From: an uncultured Deinococcaceae bacterium
GTDB lineage: Bacteria; Deinococcota; Deinococci; Deinococcales; Deinococcaceae
Assembly (NCBI GenBank): GCA_964252075.1
Contig: CAXULY010000001.1
Location: forward strand, 32,001-96,000
Length of the DNA: 64,000 bases
Direction: 5' to 3'
Below are positions 15,501-39,500 of this stretch, piece after piece (within the stretch, counting starts at the first letter, position 1; each line of letters begins with the position of its first letter). Made by a program: the position numbers.

Positions 15501-18500
15501 CGGCAACGCCGCCGCGCCGCCCACACTCGCGCTCCTGCTGCCCGTCCTGGCGCGCGCGACGCGCGAGGACCCGGGCTGGCTGGAGGCCGCGCGCCTGACG
15601 GAAGTGCCCGCTGAGGACGTGGCGGCGGCAACGCGCGCGCACGTGGCCGCGCGCCTGCCCGCGCCCACCGCGCCCACCTTCGATTACGCGAAGCTGTTGG
15701 GGCGGCCCGCCGTCCCGCCCGCCCCCGACCCCACCGATGAAGCCGATTAGCGCCGTTCTGCTGCTGGTGTTCCTTGGGGTGCTGGCGTGGCTGGTGTACG
15801 CGAACGTGACGGTCATCCGGAGTGCGGCGGCGGCGCGGCAGTTGCAGCAGGGCGGGGCGGTGGCGTCCGCGCGGGTGCTGGACGCGGGGCAGTCCATTCA
15901 CGGTCAGGCGAGCACGTACCGCGTCCGCGTGACGTTCACGCCGCCGCAGGGTGAGGCCGTCACGCTGGAGCAGGCGGTGGATTTTGCGACCTACAGCGAG
16001 GCCAGCAACGCGCGGCGCGCGCAGGTGCGGTACCTGCCGAGCGACCCGCGCCGCGCGGAGATCGTGGGGAACGCGGAGGGCGGCGTGACGGCCGCCCTCG
16101 TGATCGTGCTGGACGCGCTGTTCCTGGGGTTCGCGGGGTTCCTGGGGTGGGCGCTCCTCCGCGGGAAGTAGGGGAGGGCGCGCCCCTCAGGAGTTCAGCT
16201 TGATGGTGCTGCCCTGGATGTCCACGCCGCCCGCGCCGCCCTGAATGCTGACGCCCTGCGTGGCGTTCAGGGACATCTTGCCGTCCGCGTTGACGTTCAC
16301 GTCGCCCTTCATTTGGATGGTGAGGGTGTTCGTCTTGGAGTCAATCTTGATCTGGTTGCCGTTCATGTCCTGCACTAGAATGCCGGGCGCGTCGTCAGAG
16401 TCGTCGAGGATGATGAGGTGCCCGAGGCGCGAGCGGTGAATGCGCTGCAGGGTCTTGCCGCCCTTCACGACCTGCTTGCTGGACTTGGGGGGCGCGTCCA
16501 CGCCGTTCCACAGCCCGCCAATGATGTACGGGTGGTGCATGTCGCCCAGCTCGAAGCCCACGAGGACCTCGTCGTTCACCTCGGGAATCCACTCCATGCC
16601 GCGCGTGGGGCCGCCGCCCGGCACCGCGATGCGCGCCCAGTCGCTCTCGTCCTTCTCGGAGAGCCACGGGAACTTCACCTTCACGCGGCCCTGCCCGAGC
16701 GGGTCGTCGTTGTTCGTGACGATGCCGATCACGAAGCCGTACTGCGTGTGTGGCTTCGTGCGCTCCTGCAGGGTGTTCGCGATGTCCGGCGCGCGCCCGC
16801 CACTCACCGTGAACTCGGTGGTGTAGCCGCTCTCCGTGCGGTAGTGGTGCGTGACGCTGGAGAGCGTGTACTTCCCCTGGTAGCGGTCACTGACGCCCGT
16901 GATGTTCAGGCTCATGCCGGCCGTCATCTTGGGGTGCCCGCCCGTCACGCCGGTCGCCTCCAGGAACTTCTGTCGGTGCTGGTCGGCGGTGCCCGTCGCG
17001 TACAGTTCCGCGAGTTTTTCCTTGCGGACCACCTGCTGCGTCACCGTGTACGGCGCGGAGAGGTCCTCCTCGCCGCCCGCCTGCGCTTCCGGGATGCCCT
17101 TGCCCTTCCCGACGGCGCTCACCACCGCGCGTTTGCGCTGGGGGTCCCAGCCGCGCACGGTGGTGCCGCTCGCCTGGTCGAGGCTGGAGAGGCGCGGCGA
17201 GAACTCGATGAGGTTCGTGCCCCACTGCACCTCGCCCGCGTCGCCCTTGGATTCCATGGGTTCGCAGTGCAGCGTCGTGCCGTCCACGTACAGCAGGTAC
17301 CCGAGGCGGCTCGCGCGGTCCCGCAGGAAATCCAGGTTCGTCTGGTTCGACTGAATCACGTAATCGTGCACGTAACTCGCGGGCCCCACCTTGGCCTGCA
17401 GGCCGAGTTCCGCCGCGATCTTCTTCACCACGTCCATGTCCGTGACGTTCTGGAAGGTGCGCGTGAAGGTGCCGCGCGAGAGTTTGTGCAGGCGGTCGTA
17501 CGCGCGCACCTTCAGCTGCTGCCCGTGCTGCAGCAGGTGCGGTTCGACCTCCACGATCTCGCCGTCGAAGACGTTCTGCTCCTGGTTGTTGTCCACCTTG
17601 ATGGTGATGGTCATCGGCACGCCGACCTTGTACGTGCCCGCGTCGTCCGTGAAGTTGTACGCGCTGGCCCGCTCGCGCAGGGGCGTGAGGTCACGCAGGA
17701 TGAGGGTCGCGACGTCCGGCATGTGCAGGCTGCTCTCGATGGTGAGTTCCTGCAGGTTCGTCATGGCGTCCGGGCTGAGGTCGCCGTTCAGGTGAATGTA
17801 GAAGTGCGGCACGGCGCCGCGCATGTTGACGGCCTGGGTCATCACTCACCGCCCATCGCTGTACTTCTTGCGCAGGTCGCCGCTGTACCCCTGGTTGTCC
17901 TGCCGCACGCGCTCGCTGATCTGGTACGTGCCCTCGCCCTCCATGAGGGACTTGTGCTCCAGCGCCTCCTGGAACTCCACGCTCACCATGGCGCGCACCG
18001 GCATGCCGTTCGGCATGAACATCGTGTACTGCTGCTGCATGCTGGTGATGACAGCGTTGAACAGCCAGTTCTTGCCCCACATGAAGCGCACCTTGGGGGG
18101 GCGGCCCTTCTTGGTTTTGGGGTCGCGCAGGTCCTCGCAGATGTTCATCATCTGCCACAGGATGTCGGTGTGCGTGCGCACGTCCTTCACGGTGGTCTTG
18201 TCGTCGCGCAGGTACGTGTCGAAGAACAGCTGCATGGTGAGCTTCGCGCCGCTGCCGCCGGAGAAGGTCAGGTCGTGCGCGTCCTTGGTGCTGTTGTCGG
18301 CGGGCCCCCAGTTGTTCGTCTTGGCGACCGTGTACTCCTTGGGGTTGAACAGGCAGTCCACCTGCAGTTTCGGGCCTTCGATGGTGTAGATGGACGCTTT
18401 GGTGAGCTGACCGTCGGACATGCCTTCCTCCAGGGGTGAGGGGTTGCGTTCAGGTTTCAGTCTATTGGCACTGGCTGGGTTGCGGCGCGCCCTCGCGCCA

Positions 18501-36500: not shown

Positions 36501-39500
36501 CGGACTTCCGGGCGGCGGCGCTGCGGGCGGCGGGACCGGTGTCGCCGGACGTGCAGGTGATCCTGCCGCGCCGCGCGCGCCCGGTGCCGTTCGTGCCGGG
36601 CGGCAAGAAAGCGCCGGAGCCGGAGTTGCCGGCGCACAGCGAAGCGCAGGTGCAGGGGTGGCTGAGTCGCCTGAACCGGGTGGCGGAAGGGGAGGCGAGC
36701 GGGGGTGTGCAGGGGCGGCCCCTGTCGCTCGCGGAACTGCTCACCTGGGACCGCGACCACCCCAGGACCGCAAGCACGCCGGACGCTCAGGACCCCCCGC
36801 CACATAATGAAGTCGGTGACACCACGGCGCCTGCGGCGGCCAGCCCTGAAGTTGGGGCACCTCATGCAGTGACGGAGACCCTCCCGACGTCACCTCTTAA
36901 TGAGGCAGCGTCGCTCCCCCAGCACGCGGCACCGTCACTGGTCAACGGCTCGCCCGCGCCCGCTCCTGGGGTGCCAGCGCCAGTTATGCCACACCTGCAG
37001 CAGCCAGCCCAGACTGCTCGCGCTGCAGCCCAAGATGCTCCGCCGGTCCCGCCGGCCAAGGCGGCGCCAGCTCGTCCTGCGCCACCAACCATTGATCGCC
37101 CGGACGCGGGGCCAGCAACGCCAGCGATGCCGCCGCAGACTGACATCCGGGCCAGCGTCGCCCCGGTGGTTCCCCTGAAAGCTCAGATACCAGAGGACAG
37201 CCCAAGGCATGAGGCAACGCCCGTGCGGTCCGCAGAGGCAGCGGTCGCTCCCACTCCAGCGGCGCCCTCAGCGTCGGCCGTGATGCCCGACGCTTCGCAG
37301 GCTGACGCGCCCAATGTGGGGACAGAGCGCCCAAAAGCCGCCGGGGTCAGGGGAAGCGCGGGCGCGCCCGCCGCTGACGCTGGCCCCATCGTGAATGCGG
37401 CGCTTCCCGTCGTCGGTCCCGCGCGCATCGCGGATCCGGTGAGCGCGGCGCCATTACCCGTGCCGGGCCTGCAGCGGGTCCGCAGCCGCGCCCGCGTGGA
37501 GCGCGCCCTCGCCCAGCCGGAAGCGCGCGAGCCGCTGCCCCTGCAGGCCCGCGCGCGGCTCGCCCCGCTGCTCGGCGCGGACGTGAGTGGCGTGCACGTG
37601 GTGCGGGACGCCCGCGCCGCTGAGGCGGTGGCAGAGGTCGGCGCGGACGCACTCGCGGTGGGGGACACCGTCCTGCTGGGTGCCGGGCAGGACCTGAGCT
37701 CACCACAGTCGCTGGCGCTGCTGGCGCACGAGTTGACGCACGTGCTGCGCGAGCGGCAGCCGGGTTTCGTGCCCGCCAGCGTGCGGCGTCAGACGAGGTC
37801 CGCGCGCCTGGACGAGGAGACCCTCGCGGAACGCGTGGAGGGACAGGTGCGTCAGCGCCTTCAAGCCGCCCGCCCCGCCGAGTCCCCTCGCCCGACGGCC
37901 GGTGCGGCGCCCTCGCCCTCAGAGTGGAACGGCCTGCCCGCTCCCTGGGACCCCATGCCGCACTGGGAGGCGCCCGCGACGAATGAGGCGCCCCGGCAGG
38001 CGGCCCCCCGCGCTGCCGCAGCTGCGCCCGCTCCGTTGGCGTCCGCGCCGGCGGCACCTGCCGCTGCGGCGCCGTTTGCTTCTGGTGCGCGGGCGGCCAG
38101 CTCGGCGCGTTCCGTGGCGAGTTCGGATTCTGGTTCGGACTCGGCGGGCGCTGGGGGCTCGGAGGTCGCGCAGGGGCCGGCCGTGGGTTTCGATCACCGC
38201 AAGACGAACCGCAACGCGCCGGACCTCGACCGGCTCGCCGTGCAGATTTACGCCATCCTCAAACGGCGCCTGAGTGACGAGATGCGCCGCATCCGTTAGC
38301 GGAGGACCGCATGACCCTGGAACCCCAGCGCCGCGAGGCGGAAGACGAGCAGCGCCCCCCCACGTCGCGGGAGGGGCTCACGCCCGAGCGTGACCCGAAA
38401 CGTGTGAAGCCCGAGGACGGGCAGGGGAGCCCCGCGCCACTCCGCGCGCCGAGCCCGCGCCTGCAGTACGCCTCGCCGGACCTGCAACGCCCGGCGAGTG
38501 CGGAACTGCCGCGGGACCGCCTCACGGCCCTCACGCGCGCCGCGCTGGAGGCGCTGGGCGGCAGCGAGGAGCGCGCGCTGTTGTTCACGCCGGAGGAGGA
38601 CGTCCTGACGCGCCTCGTGAATGACGAGAGCCTGGACCTCACCCCGCGCAGCGACCTCACGCCCCTGATTCCCGAGGAGCAGAGCCGCGGACTGAGCGGT
38701 TCCGGCAAGCAGGAAGGCAAGGCGTTCGAGGAGGACTTCCGGCGGGAAGCGGAACTCAAGCCGGACGACCTGGAGGACATCGCGCGCGAGCGCCGCGAAC
38801 TCGTGCAGCAGTACTACGCGCACCAGGGGCACGCGCTCGTGGACCAGGCGGAACTCACCCAGCTCGTCGGCGCGCCCACAGCGCAGGCAGCCCCCGAGCG
38901 GGAACCGGATGGGGCAGATGGGGCACCCGCTGAACAACCGCATGCCGGCGAGGCCGGACGCGCGGTTAGCGCGGCGGACGTCCTGCGCACCGAGGGCGGG
39001 GAGCGCGCGTTGCAGGCCGTGACGCAGCGCCTCGCAACGGGCTTTCAGCAGTGGCTGCGGCAGGAGGGGCACTGGCACAAGCGCAGCGAGTGGCTCAAGA
39101 AGCACCTCGCGCGCACGTGGGAGTACGCGGCGGACGCCCTGAACCCGCACACGCTGCTGCTCGCGCCCAAAGGGCACAGCCGCTTCGCGAGCTTCGTGCA
39201 GGCGGAATCGCCCGACCCAGAACTGCAGAACGACAAGCTCCCCGAGAAGGACCGCTCCGCCCGGAAGGACGAGGCCCGGGAGCGCACGCGGCGCGCCGCG
39301 AAGAACGGTCAGTTCGAACGGCAGATCAAGGAGGCGCGCCGCGCGGTCATCACCGCCACCACGAAGACCATCATGATGAGCTGGGCGGACGCACGCGACC
39401 CCTCCTGGCACCTCGACGCCACACCCGACGACGCGACCGCTGGCCTGAAGAGCCCCCAGAACCACGCCATCGAGGCGTGGCTGACGGGCGCGAACACCTG

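Follow-up and report, generated by a model that had tools for sequence, protein, structure and literature searches.

The contractile injection system (CIS) locus of this uncultured Deinococcaceae bacterium encodes a large membrane protein with a kinase-like and an FHA domain, here called KinTM, next to a baseplate wedge protein that carries an FHA domain of its own (FHA::P2_I). The two proteins belong together as a conserved pair dedicated to this CIS lineage, a conclusion supported by gene overlap, genome-level co-occurrence and conserved membrane topology, and one that agrees with the pairing proposed in the initial annotation. The FHA::P2_I and membrane kinase module was not found described in the literature searched.

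The window, a stretch of 64,000 nucleotides (contig positions 32001-96000), contains a complete CIS locus at window positions 16187-38299, and the Pfam matches fell where the initial annotation had placed its genes. On the minus strand, Pfam identified a VgrG-like spike protein (Phage_base_V, Phage_GPD; 16187..17845), a CIS_tube protein of the tube-initiator type (17846..18421; 4.9e-30), the 294-aa FHA::Tail_P2_I baseplate wedge protein of the Cis12/Afp12 type (P0002; 22925..23809), a Baseplate_J protein of the Cis11/Afp11 type (23806..25992), a gp25-like baseplate wedge or sheath initiator (25827..26246), an Afp15-type AAA ATPase with a winged-helix domain (26396..28450), a Pvc16_N cap/terminator protein (28481..29356) and a PAAR protein (29308..29601). 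The 1488-aa bitopic membrane protein KinTM (P0001; 18462..22928, minus strand) was delineated by Pfam, hydrophobicity, alignments and models. The plus strand encodes, again by Pfam, the sheath (30034..31620), a T4 gp19-type tube protein (31700..32146) and a second one (32825..33274); these are followed by a 1643-aa candidate cargo protein (33368..38299) with an eCIS_core domain (DUF4157) at residues 1389-1464. Since orthologues of Baseplate_J align only from about residue 58, its true start probably lies inside the annotated ORF. Stop/start overlaps (ATGA, GTGA) couple Baseplate_J, FHA::P2_I and KinTM in one operon: the stop of Baseplate_J overlaps the start of P0002, and the start of KinTM overlaps the P0002 stop by four bases (ATGA). 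The locus encodes a cytoplasmic-type CIS and falls in the Chloroflexota/Deinococcota clade that Gaisin et al. (ISME J 2026, PMC12998442) describe within lineage IId; a Baseplate_J tree places it together with D. aquatilis in a starred clade of 23 rows of Deinococcus loci.

P0002 consists of an FHA domain (aa 27-91, 8.3e-12; 23537..23731, minus strand; Pfam and alignments), a variable Pro-rich linker of about 45 aa and a phage P2 gpI-like core (aa 143-294; 22928..23383, minus strand), the latter containing the Tail_P2_I match (173-284, 9.6e-13). Apart from the alignments, this half is defined by its match to a subunit of the Streptomyces CIS baseplate structure (PDB 9GTP, chain E; 9gtp_E, E 4.1e-14). 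The FHA domain retains G29-R30 and H47, whereas Ala44 stands in place of the conserved phosphothreonine-binding Ser, and the S-x-N-G loop has degenerated to GNGE. The last two features were not part of the initial annotation.

The kinase-like domain of KinTM (aa 39-297, Pkinase 1e-30; 22038..22814, minus strand) has PknB as its best PDB match (E 2e-28), and the alignment to PknB revealed Arg67 in place of the β3 Lys and HGN (Asn165) in place of HRD, while Asn170 and DFG (191-193) are retained. The FHA domain that follows (aa 367-442, Pfam FHA 367-420, 1.2e-12; 21603..21830, minus strand) keeps G370-R371, S385-x-x-H388 and N407-G408; in all 30 orthologues compared, G370, S385 and N407 never vary, and R371, H388 and G408 show a conservation of 90% or more. 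The same region is also matched by the Pfam family Yop-YscD_cpl (3.4e-09). Two cytoplasmic Ig-like domains (FixG_C/NPCBM_assoc-like, aa 451-700; Pfam 6.7e-10, two stretches; 20829..21578, minus strand) lead to the sole transmembrane helix at about aa 699-727 (hydrophobicity; 20748..20834, minus strand), in line with the single hydrophobic helix noted in the initial annotation. A single peak at the equivalent site was present in all 16 orthologues of one set and in most of a wider set.

Beyond the helix, the repeat alignment delineated seven copies of an Ig-like repeat of about 76 aa (18789..20747, minus strand), spanning residues 727-780 (partial), 809-883, 885-959, 960-1036, 1038-1114, 1174-1250 and 1298-1374, with Pro/Thr/Ala-rich linkers between them; the last repeat was modelled as an Ig fold (Z 9.4). 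The L.W.V motif reported earlier is indeed located at 830, 982, 1060, 1196 and 1320 (as L.W.[VT]), but the underlying repeat has seven copies and not five. The protein ends in a domain of about 100 aa modelled as an 8-stranded beta-barrel of avidin/streptavidin-like fold (pLDDT 89; 18465..18788, minus strand), which superimposes on 4bj8_A with Z 12.7 and an rmsd of 1.7 Å over 92 aa. A Cys pair in this barrel (ERWC...C) is conserved in 16 of 19 aligned Deinococcus orthologues. Based on these cysteines and on the positive charges that flank the helix on its N-terminal side, the C-terminus of KinTM is predicted to face outside.

Searching the 363 Deinococcales genomes with FHA::P2_I returned 59 matching genomes at E<=1e-5, the source genome included, and reproduced the earlier count of 47 other genomes with the full-length fusion (34/124, 10/19 and 3/68 by family). 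The FHA-Ig region of KinTM was found in 46 of these 47 genomes, and among the other 315 there was one match, a weak one. The two genes are adjacent in 14 of 16 Deinococcales loci, 2.3 kb apart in L041, and the pair is missing in L045 and likewise in L050. The earlier statement that every sampled Deinococcales CIS locus keeps the pair together has to admit these three exceptions, as well as some second copies of the two genes that are separated by about 13 kb and encoded on different strands. Among 16 Deinococcales KinTM orthologues, Arg is found at the β3 position in 13 and the catalytic Asp is kept in five; the residue loss described for this genome is real, but it is common to the whole Deinococcaceae clade.

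Nor is the module restricted to the Deinococcales: Chloroflexota, Gemmatimonadota, Acidobacteriota, Methylomirabilota and others carry it in their CIS loci too. The earlier observation that 39 of 40 genomes with CIS_tube close to FHA are Deinococcales reflects the gene order of the Deinococcaceae and not the range of the module, because the Deinococcaceae-specific order puts CIS_tube after the kinase gene; outside this family the order is CIS_tube, VgrG, (PAAR), gp25, Baseplate_J, FHA::P2_I, kinase. Genome contigs of several phyla yielded 67 loci that have the FHA fusion and 1.5 kb or more of downstream sequence. A kinase-like domain starts within 300 nt downstream of FHA::P2_I in 51 of them and within 7 kb in 59, and in three further loci the FHA and Ig parts are found where they would normally lie. 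No kinase-like gene was detected within 9 kb of the fusion in L045, L050 and L105. Across orthologues the architecture comprises Pkinase, FHA, a FixG_C-like Ig part and a single TM helix at about residue 620-925, except that FHA was not detectable in the Gemmatimonadota kinases. The ectodomains differ by phylum (Ig repeats, a weak PQQ_2 (BamB-like) Pfam match below the cut-off, or Big_2). A kinase-less FHA-Ig-TM version directly follows FHA::P2_I in L058, L065, L072, L103 and L075, and apparently also in L102, where the ORF leaves the contig before the helix; in the first four of these loci a kinase paralogue is located 3-5 kb away. As judged from these sequences, what stays constant beside FHA::P2_I is the FHA-Ig-TM protein.

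We then compared the residue state of both proteins. In phyla other than that of Deinococcus, K/HRD/DFG are mostly intact and the baseplate FHA is canonical, which makes a phospho-switch credible in these relatives. The 77 rows of the residue table, in which four records are present twice, split into 39 with an intact kinase and the baseplate Ser kept, 28 with a degenerate kinase and the Ser lost, 10 with a degenerate kinase and the Ser kept, and none with an intact kinase and the Ser lost. On the Baseplate_J tree, the parallel decay of the two proteins traces back to only two losses of the baseplate Ser, versus at least six changes of kinase state, and the independent-pairs comparison (median p 1) was without power. 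For the present genome, the initial annotation had envisaged a phosphothreonine/FHA handshake between both proteins; this finds no support here, because Lys and Asp are missing from the kinase, as is the Ser that would bind phosphate from the baseplate FHA. Five other Pkinase genes are present in the source genome. A PP2C phosphatase was found neither among the larger window ORFs scanned nor in 25 ORFs that follow the kinase gene in eight loci, seven of them with intact-looking kinases.

In phage P2 (gpI-gpH) and in Afp (Afp12-Afp13), the wedge protein is followed by the tail fibre in gene order. As in these arrangements, a gpI-like gene follows Baseplate_J here, and the KinTM gene occupies the post-gpI position, which we take to be the tail-fibre slot of phage P2 and eCIS operons, whose product meets the target surface. 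In contrast to P2 and Afp, the gene in this slot codes not for a secreted fibre but for an integral membrane protein belonging to the producer cell; Pfam scans gave no likeness of KinTM to fibres. Pseudokinase or FHA-like cytoplasmic domains serve as docking surfaces in the M. tuberculosis pseudokinase MviN with FhaA and in the T3SS protein SctD (YscD/PrgH). KinTM resembles them as a membrane protein with such a cytoplasmic domain, its FHA matching Yop-YscD_cpl, whereas those systems are unconnected to a contractile baseplate and differ in domain order and partners.

A functional parallel is found in the T6SS, where TagH is reported to bind phosphothreonine on TagE or TssL, promoting assembly (PMC13584744). 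As described there, PpkA (TagE), PppA (TagG) and Fha1 (TagH) likewise bring a membrane Hanks-type kinase with an extracytoplasmic sensor and an FHA protein into the cluster of a contractile machine. Here, however, one FHA is fused to a structural wedge protein and the second to the kinase, and the ORFs scanned contained no phosphatase. The machine itself belongs with the cytoplasmic CIS of the Afp/eCIS type and not with the T6SS, and in this genome the kinase is without Lys and Asp and the baseplate FHA without Ser. In Streptomyces coelicolor, the bitopic membrane protein CisA from the CIS cluster is required for contraction and firing, with the peripheral baseplate protein Cis11 as predicted partner (PMC12237407). 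CisA shares with the predicted topology of KinTM the cytoplasmic N-terminus and the C-terminal domain outside; by its published description, CisA differs in its unstructured cytoplasmic part and substrate-binding-protein-like outer domain, and has no kinase, FHA or Ig domains (PMC12237407). Among the organisms studied by Gaisin et al., the pair of FHA::P2_I and kinase-like protein is likewise present in D. aquatilis (L054), C. chliarophilus (Calidithermus, L106) and T. carboxidivorans (L115). The text of that paper has no mention of forkhead, FHA or a protein kinase: both "FHA" and "kinase" are absent from the main text, and the supplement text names only phosphoglycerate kinase (gene labels of Fig. 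3C aside; PMC12998442).

From gene architecture, residues, topology signals, co-occurrence and phyletic pattern, we tentatively propose, at somewhat less than an even chance, that KinTM is a receptor in the envelope, comparable to an inverted tail fibre, which docks or triggers the cytoplasmic CIS via FHA contacts. Binding of KinTM to the baseplate would be FHA-mediated, and the signal would run inwards, so that an envelope or extracellular cue would make the internal CIS dock at the membrane and fire. In most phyla this contact may be switched by autophosphorylation, as in T6SS PpkA-Fha1, given the intact kinase residues and the canonical baseplate FHA there. In the Deinococcaceae, where the kinase (Arg67, Asn165) and baseplate FHA (Ala44) residues are lost, it would have to be either phospho-independent, and thus hard-wired, or dependent on another kinase, whose phosphothreonine would be read by the still-canonical FHA of KinTM. 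The need for CisA in the firing of Streptomyces CIS is a precedent for this receptor reading. The predicted contact of CisA with Cis11, compared with the Cis12 contact proposed for KinTM, counts against it, as do the loci L045, L050 and L105 with the fusion but no kinase-like gene within 9 kb, the Gemmatimonadota kinases in which FHA was not detectable, the absence of a PP2C phosphatase from the ORFs scanned, and the ten degenerate kinases beside a Ser-bearing FHA.

The tail-fibre slot could also suit a permanent structural tether, in which at least six KinTM copies would be stable baseplate parts and the CIS would be built on the membrane like the T6SS or thylakoid-anchored CIS. The lost phospho-dependence in the Deinococcaceae would fit such a constitutive contact. 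However, published cryo-ET found the CIS of D. aquatilis "localised unattached in the cytoplasm", and that of Calidithermus is unattached as well, although both loci carry the pair (PMC12998442). This contradicts the permanent envelope tether offered in the initial annotation, which we regard as very improbable; any docking in D. aquatilis would therefore be transient or conditional. The free cytoplasmic CIS is compatible with a licence for assembly, in which the kinase would mark the baseplate or another CIS subunit, the Cis12 FHA would read the mark and wedges would assemble only on signal. T6SS assembly control by PpkA/TagE and Fha1/TagH (PMC13584744) and the intact kinase residues and canonical FHA of most non-Deinococcus loci argue in the same direction; with the switch decayed, the Deinococcaceae would assemble their CIS constitutively. 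But such a licence leaves unexplained why a kinase-less FHA-Ig-TM-ectodomain protein is retained directly after Cis12 where the kinase is split off or degenerate, and why an ectodomain of 650-900 aa is conserved in a lineage with a dead kinase. The negative phosphatase search (25 ORFs, eight loci) also speaks against it, and we consider it rather unlikely.

The PknB-type receptor-kinase architecture and the differing ectodomains, as expected of sensors, would also fit an envelope-stress sensor that controls only CIS transcription or stability, or acts elsewhere, and makes no contact with the baseplate; the Cis12 FHA would then serve an unrelated contact within the baseplate. The overlap with the baseplate genes, the near-perfect genome-level co-occurrence and the place of the gene, which comes last in the baseplate block across phyla, make this improbable, as does the dead kinase, which is conserved across the Deinococcaceae clade yet unable to phosphorylate. 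Under the receptor reading, gating of the CIS from the envelope by KinTM is possible. The pairing of a baseplate FHA protein with this membrane protein recurs in several phyla and may be how internal CIS link to the cell envelope.

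The locus of the contractile injection system (CIS), at 16187-38299 of the window, is complete, with a VgrG-like gene at one end and an eCIS_core gene at the other, and it is organized in two divergent blocks. The block on the minus strand, running from 29601 down to 16187, encodes PAAR, the Pvc16_N cap, the AAA ATPase, gp25, Baseplate_J, the FHA-fused wedge protein P0002 (22925..23809), the kinase-like membrane protein KinTM (18462..22928), CIS_tube and VgrG. The plus-strand block consists of the sheath gene, two T4-gp19-type tube genes and the gene of a 1643-aa protein with an eCIS_core domain. 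Because the stop of Baseplate_J overlaps the start of P0002 by four bases, as does the stop of P0002 the start of KinTM, we read these three genes as a single unit. A P0002-type gene was found right behind Baseplate_J in the window and in nearly all related loci that hold Baseplate_J. The initial annotation was right about the CIS locus with a kinase-like FHA membrane protein but framed it too narrowly. The sequencing runs for the locus comprise four DNA metagenome runs with a share of at most 0.30, and no RNA run is listed.

Several further genes in and around the locus deserve a description. An ORF of about 167 aa (32151-32654, plus strand), for which no Pfam family was found, lies between the two tube genes, and most related loci have a similarly sized gap between their tube genes. 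On the strand opposite to VgrG and some 2.5 kb past it, a 2208-aa protein (7029-13655, plus strand) carries an Endonuclea_NS_2 domain (aa 1380-1459, 7.5e-11). Two small ORFs come next, one HEAT-like and one DUF6966 (13659-14162 and 14196-14648, both plus strand); the large protein is a possible CIS cargo, and the small ones possible immunity-like partners. A 692-aa VWA_2 protein is encoded near the CIS locus (4900-6978, minus strand), and in a locus from Gemmatimonadota (L119, 16027-18930) a second Pkinase gene and a VWA gene are located a few kb past the CIS kinase. Large eCIS_core (DUF4157) proteins are encoded directly behind the kinase gene in an acidobacterial locus (L096, 12792-16196) and in one from Thermomicrobia (L076, 13527-18689), which differs from the placement behind the second tube gene in the window. 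Finally, a 3151-aa ORF (49404-58859, minus strand) is unusually long for a TamB-like protein and has a C-terminal TamB domain (6.6e-31).

KinTM, a protein of 1488 aa, consists of an N-terminal kinase-like domain (PF00069, aa 39-297, 1e-30; PknB structure 3f61_A, E 2.3e-28), an FHA domain (PF00498, aa 367-420, 1.2e-12), two Ig domains of the FixG_C/NPCBM_assoc-like type (aa 451-700) and one strongly hydrophobic segment at about aa 699-727. Past this helix, a motif L.W.V had initially been reported at five sites. A profile built from these sites found two further copies (727-780 and 885-959), giving seven copies of a repeat of about 76 residues with Pro/Thr/Ala-rich linkers in between. Pfam gave no match at or above the cut-off for the ectodomain and the C-terminal domain. 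In the model of aa 1300-1488 (pLDDT 89), an Ig fold precedes an eight-stranded barrel. In a wide search of the model, this last domain of about 100 residues (18465-18788, minus strand) was closest to avidins (4bj8_A, Z 12.7, rmsd 1.7 A over 92 residues), while a Foldseek comparison of the C-terminal model with the PDB yielded no match at E<=0.001 and a search of the ESM Atlas with aa 1380-1488 only unnamed clusters (0.86-0.90). Sharing the predicted avidin-like fold does not show a function. At its C-terminal end the domain bears a Cys pair that 16 of 19 Deinococcus orthologues have in common, and positive charges flank the helix on its N-terminal side; an orientation with the kinase inside and the barrel outside would fit both signals. 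Two other roles of KinTM were considered and rejected: CIS cargo, since KinTM is an integral membrane protein with conserved topology, and defence-system component (PADLOC: PD-T4-6 and others), since these matches are generic kinase-domain matches and were not taken as defence evidence.

The kinase-like domain had been described as lacking the beta3 lysine and the catalytic aspartate in this genome. Both replacements are present, with Arg67 at the position of the PknB lysine (VAIK) and Asn165 in place of the HRD aspartate (HGN, PknB alignment), but they are not peculiar to it: among the 16 Deinococcales orthologues, the beta3 position is Arg in 13, and the catalytic Asp is found in five, the others having Asn (8), Gln (2) or Glu (1). 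Most orthologues outside Deinococcales retain K, HRD, N and DFG. KinTM itself has kept the Mg-binding Asn170 and DFG (D191-F-G), and H163 and N170 are invariant in 30/30 orthologues. Five other Pkinase genes are present in this genome. The FHA domain of KinTM retains G-R (370-371), S-x-x-H (S385, H388) and N-G (N407), and G370, S385 and N407 are invariant in all 30 orthologues, which come from several phyla.

In P0002 (294 aa), an FHA domain (PF00498, aa 27-91, 8.3e-12; GarA-type FHA structures, E ~1e-6) is joined to a P2 gpI-like core (Tail_P2_I, PF09684, 9.6e-13) through some 45 residues of variable, Pro-rich linker. The core matches chain E of the Streptomyces CIS baseplate 9GTP (9gtp_E, E 4.1e-14). 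From the six copies of this chain and the published wedge composition, two Cis11 and one Cis12 according to the accessible text of PMC12237407, we infer that chain E is Cis12. Compared with GarA-type FHA domains, the phosphate-binding Ser of P0002 is replaced by Ala44 and the next Arg by Ile. In place of the S-x-N-G loop, P0002 has G-N-G-E and a deletion, the alignment being uncertain at so short a loop. All Deinococcaceae copies show A[IV]RH at the Ser site except one, a SIRH on a single MAG contig (L008/L050). Outside Deinococcales, the site is mostly SR.H, together with S.NG.

Searching the 363 Deinococcales genomes reproduced the counts of the initial annotation, with matches in 59 genomes (this one included) and the full-length fusion in 47 others, distributed over three families (34/124, 10/19 and 3/68). 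A search with aa 340-700 of KinTM matched 48 of the 363 genomes, again including this one. The region is present in 46 of the 47 fusion-bearing genomes; in the single exception (G195), the fusion gene lies 627 nt from a contig end, and one extra match (G122) is weak. The claim that the pair is kept together in every sampled Deinococcales CIS locus holds for 14 of 16 fetched loci, in which the two genes are adjacent, but in L041 they are 2.3 kb apart and in L045 the pair is absent. L050 likewise lacks the pair, its fusion gene being followed by one for an MFS transporter, and some second copies have the fusion and the KinTM-like gene on opposite strands, with about 13 kb between them. In one Deinococcales family (f2), several genomes (G136-G143) have two or three FHA::P2_I copies and two KinTM-like genes, with one copy separated in this way. 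In Calidithermus chliarophilus (L106, 8983-13796), the pair occurs with no recognisable Baseplate_J, gp25, sheath or tube gene within 9 kb on either side, and no Pfam family was found for the four ORFs upstream of it.

Beyond this order, both PF09684 and PF00498 are present in 106 of 106 database relatives of P0002, Chloroflexota and Gemmatimonadota among them, and 73 of 80 loci fetched from species genomes contain the fusion. These loci belong to Chloroflexota (Ktedonobacteria, Thermogemmatispora, Thermomicrobiales, Chloroflexia), Gemmatimonadota, Acidobacteriota, Methylomirabilota and Armatimonadota, and also to Calidithermus. Downstream sequence of 1.5 kb or more is available for 67 of the fused loci; a kinase-like domain starts within 300 nt in 51 of them and within 7 kb in 59, and three more have FHA and Ig parts at the usual distance. 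The usual gene order outside Deinococcaceae is sheath, tube, tube, eCIS_core, CIS_tube, VgrG, (PAAR), gp25, Baseplate_J, FHA::P2_I, kinase. The kinase/FHA module is not a Deinococcales speciality. CIS_tube had been reported near FHA in 40 genomes, 39 of them Deinococcales; because the module is found in several phyla, this figure measures the rearrangement that placed CIS_tube after the kinase gene in Deinococcaceae and not the spread of the module.

Both intact and degenerate versions of the pair exist. Over 77 rows, in which four records were fetched twice, 39 combine an intact kinase with the baseplate Ser, 28 a degenerate kinase with a lost Ser and 10 a degenerate kinase with a kept Ser, and not a single row has an intact kinase and a lost Ser. 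A tree of Baseplate_J, built from 80 rows by a quick LG+G4 search, shows six or more changes of the kinase state and two of the Ser state, of which one falls in the Deinococcaceae clade and the other in a group of Chloroflexales (L058, L065, L066, L085). An independent-pairs test of correlated decay on this tree found 4-6 pairs with a median p of 1 and had no power, and we withhold a statistical claim on parallel decay because the events are too few. The pattern fits an order in which the kinase dies first and the phosphate pocket of the baseplate FHA is lost afterwards, although the events behind this order number only two.

The gene next to the fusion on its downstream side lacks the kinase in five loci (L058, L065, L072, L103, L075), and apparently also in L102, where the contig breaks off the ORF ahead of the helix. 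Its product shows the layout FHA, Ig, TM at about 355-380 and ectodomain, with complete ORFs of 958-1464 aa, and in L058, L065, L072 and L103 a kinase-bearing paralogue is located 3-5 kb downstream. Because these kinase-less versions adjoin the fusion, we regard FHA-Ig-TM-ectodomain as the constant neighbour of Cis12 and the kinase as a detachable module. Judged from ORF lengths and helix positions, the ectodomain comprises 650-900 residues in Deinococcaceae vs about 165-550 elsewhere. All three phospho-reading or phospho-writing sites are degenerate in the Chloroflexales members with a kinase-less neighbour.

According to the accessible text of Gaisin et al. (ISME J 2026, PMC12998442), the CIS of Chloroflexota and Deinococcota form a clade within lineage IId, particles were purified from D. 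aquatilis, D. grandis, C. chliarophilus and T. carboxidivorans, and in-cell imaging showed CIS 'unattached in the cytoplasm'. The pair is carried by three of these strains, D. aquatilis (L054), C. chliarophilus (L106) and T. carboxidivorans (L115). The words 'FHA' and 'kinase' do not occur in the main text of that paper, and one supplement has phosphoglycerate kinase only. In the literature searched, mostly outside subscription journals, neither FHA nor a kinase was connected with any CIS other than the T6SS. One comparison is CisA, a bitopic protein that is required for firing in Streptomyces and predicted to contact Cis11 (PMC12237407, accessible text, which does not mention FHA); close cisA homologues are described as absent in Roseiflexus (PMC12998442). 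Like CisA, KinTM is bitopic, with a single helix, cytoplasmic-type domains at the N-terminus and a Cys pair at the C-terminus, and is encoded within a cytoplasmic-CIS cluster. In contrast to the kinase-FHA-Ig arrangement of KinTM, CisA has, by its published description, an unstructured N-terminus and an SBP-like C-terminal domain.

What the analysis establishes for KinTM and P0002 is their architecture and residues, the signals of membrane topology, how regularly they occur together and how they are distributed over phyla; binding of KinTM to the baseplate, the direction of the signal and its effect on firing are inferred. Our leading, still tentative reading is that KinTM is the envelope receptor of this CIS clade and contacts the baseplate by FHA-mediated docking, so that a cue from the envelope or from outside would set the time when the internal CIS reaches the membrane and fires. 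In loci with an intact kinase, the docking site would be made by autophosphorylation of the S/T/P-rich linker past the kinase domain. In Deinococcaceae, the contact would have to be phospho-independent, or else to use the intact FHA of KinTM together with a phosphothreonine provided by one of the five other Pkinase genes. A candidate phosphosite is Thr321 in the motif GPxPT[VL]x[LR]; of the 30 orthologues aligned, 24 have Thr at this position, and the motif itself was seen in Deinococcales only. Against this reading stand the free-floating particles of the published tomograms, which exclude a permanent tether, the few loci without a partner gene, and the failure to find a PP2C phosphatase (the PppA/TagG partner) among the larger ORFs scanned in the window. 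Nor was such a phosphatase found in the 25 ORFs downstream of the kinase in eight other loci.

A T6SS-style licence for assembly is rather unlikely. The kinase/phosphatase/FHA pathway of the T6SS (PMC13584744, accessible text) is, by analogy, the control logic nearest to the KinTM/Cis12 pair, and in both a membrane kinase and an FHA protein are encoded in the cluster. Unlike in the T6SS, the parts in the window are of eCIS/Afp-type (Phage_sheath_1 sheath, T4 gp19-type tube, Pvc16_N, AAA ATPase, eCIS_core), and the T6SS core machine (TssB/C sheath, Hcp, membrane complex) was not found at this locus. That KinTM is an envelope sensor acting on expression only is improbable. The tethering proposed initially is more improbable still in its permanent, structural form, which is ruled out by the free-floating particles in the tomograms (PMC12998442, accessible text). 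The initial interpretation is supported in part.

The kinase gene occupies what we take to be the position of the tail fibre in phage P2 and Afp-type operons. As an 'inverted tail fibre', a reading that is doubtful as a whole, a transmembrane receptor kinase of the producer cell would have taken over this slot in a multi-phylum clade of cytoplasmic CIS. Its ectodomain would sense the envelope or the cell's surroundings, and the receptor would phosphorylate itself to form a site at which the FHA of Cis12 docks. This docking, the counterpart of fibre-receptor binding in phages, would set off contraction of the internal machine, with regulated cell death or cargo release as outcome. In Deinococcaceae the system would be hard-wired, with a pseudokinase and a phospho-blind baseplate FHA, the internal FHA taking its input from another kinase.

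Overall, we see here a receptor (pseudo)kinase/FHA module that belongs to the baseplate block of cytoplasmic CIS in a clade spanning several phyla, and that occurs in natural active and dead forms. It addresses the question of how a cytoplasmic CIS finds the membrane and is triggered, for which the answer given by CisA is confined to Streptomyces. The pair supplies two concrete candidates, the FHA on Cis12 and the receptor (pseudo)kinase, in three strains with purified CIS, two of which were also imaged in cells; the module is directly testable in strains already used for cryo-ET, and the 'active' and 'dead' versions provide a built-in comparison. If true, the proposed mechanism would extend the T6SS-type kinase/FHA control logic to phage-tail-like CIS and would give an example of a baseplate with a built-in FHA domain.
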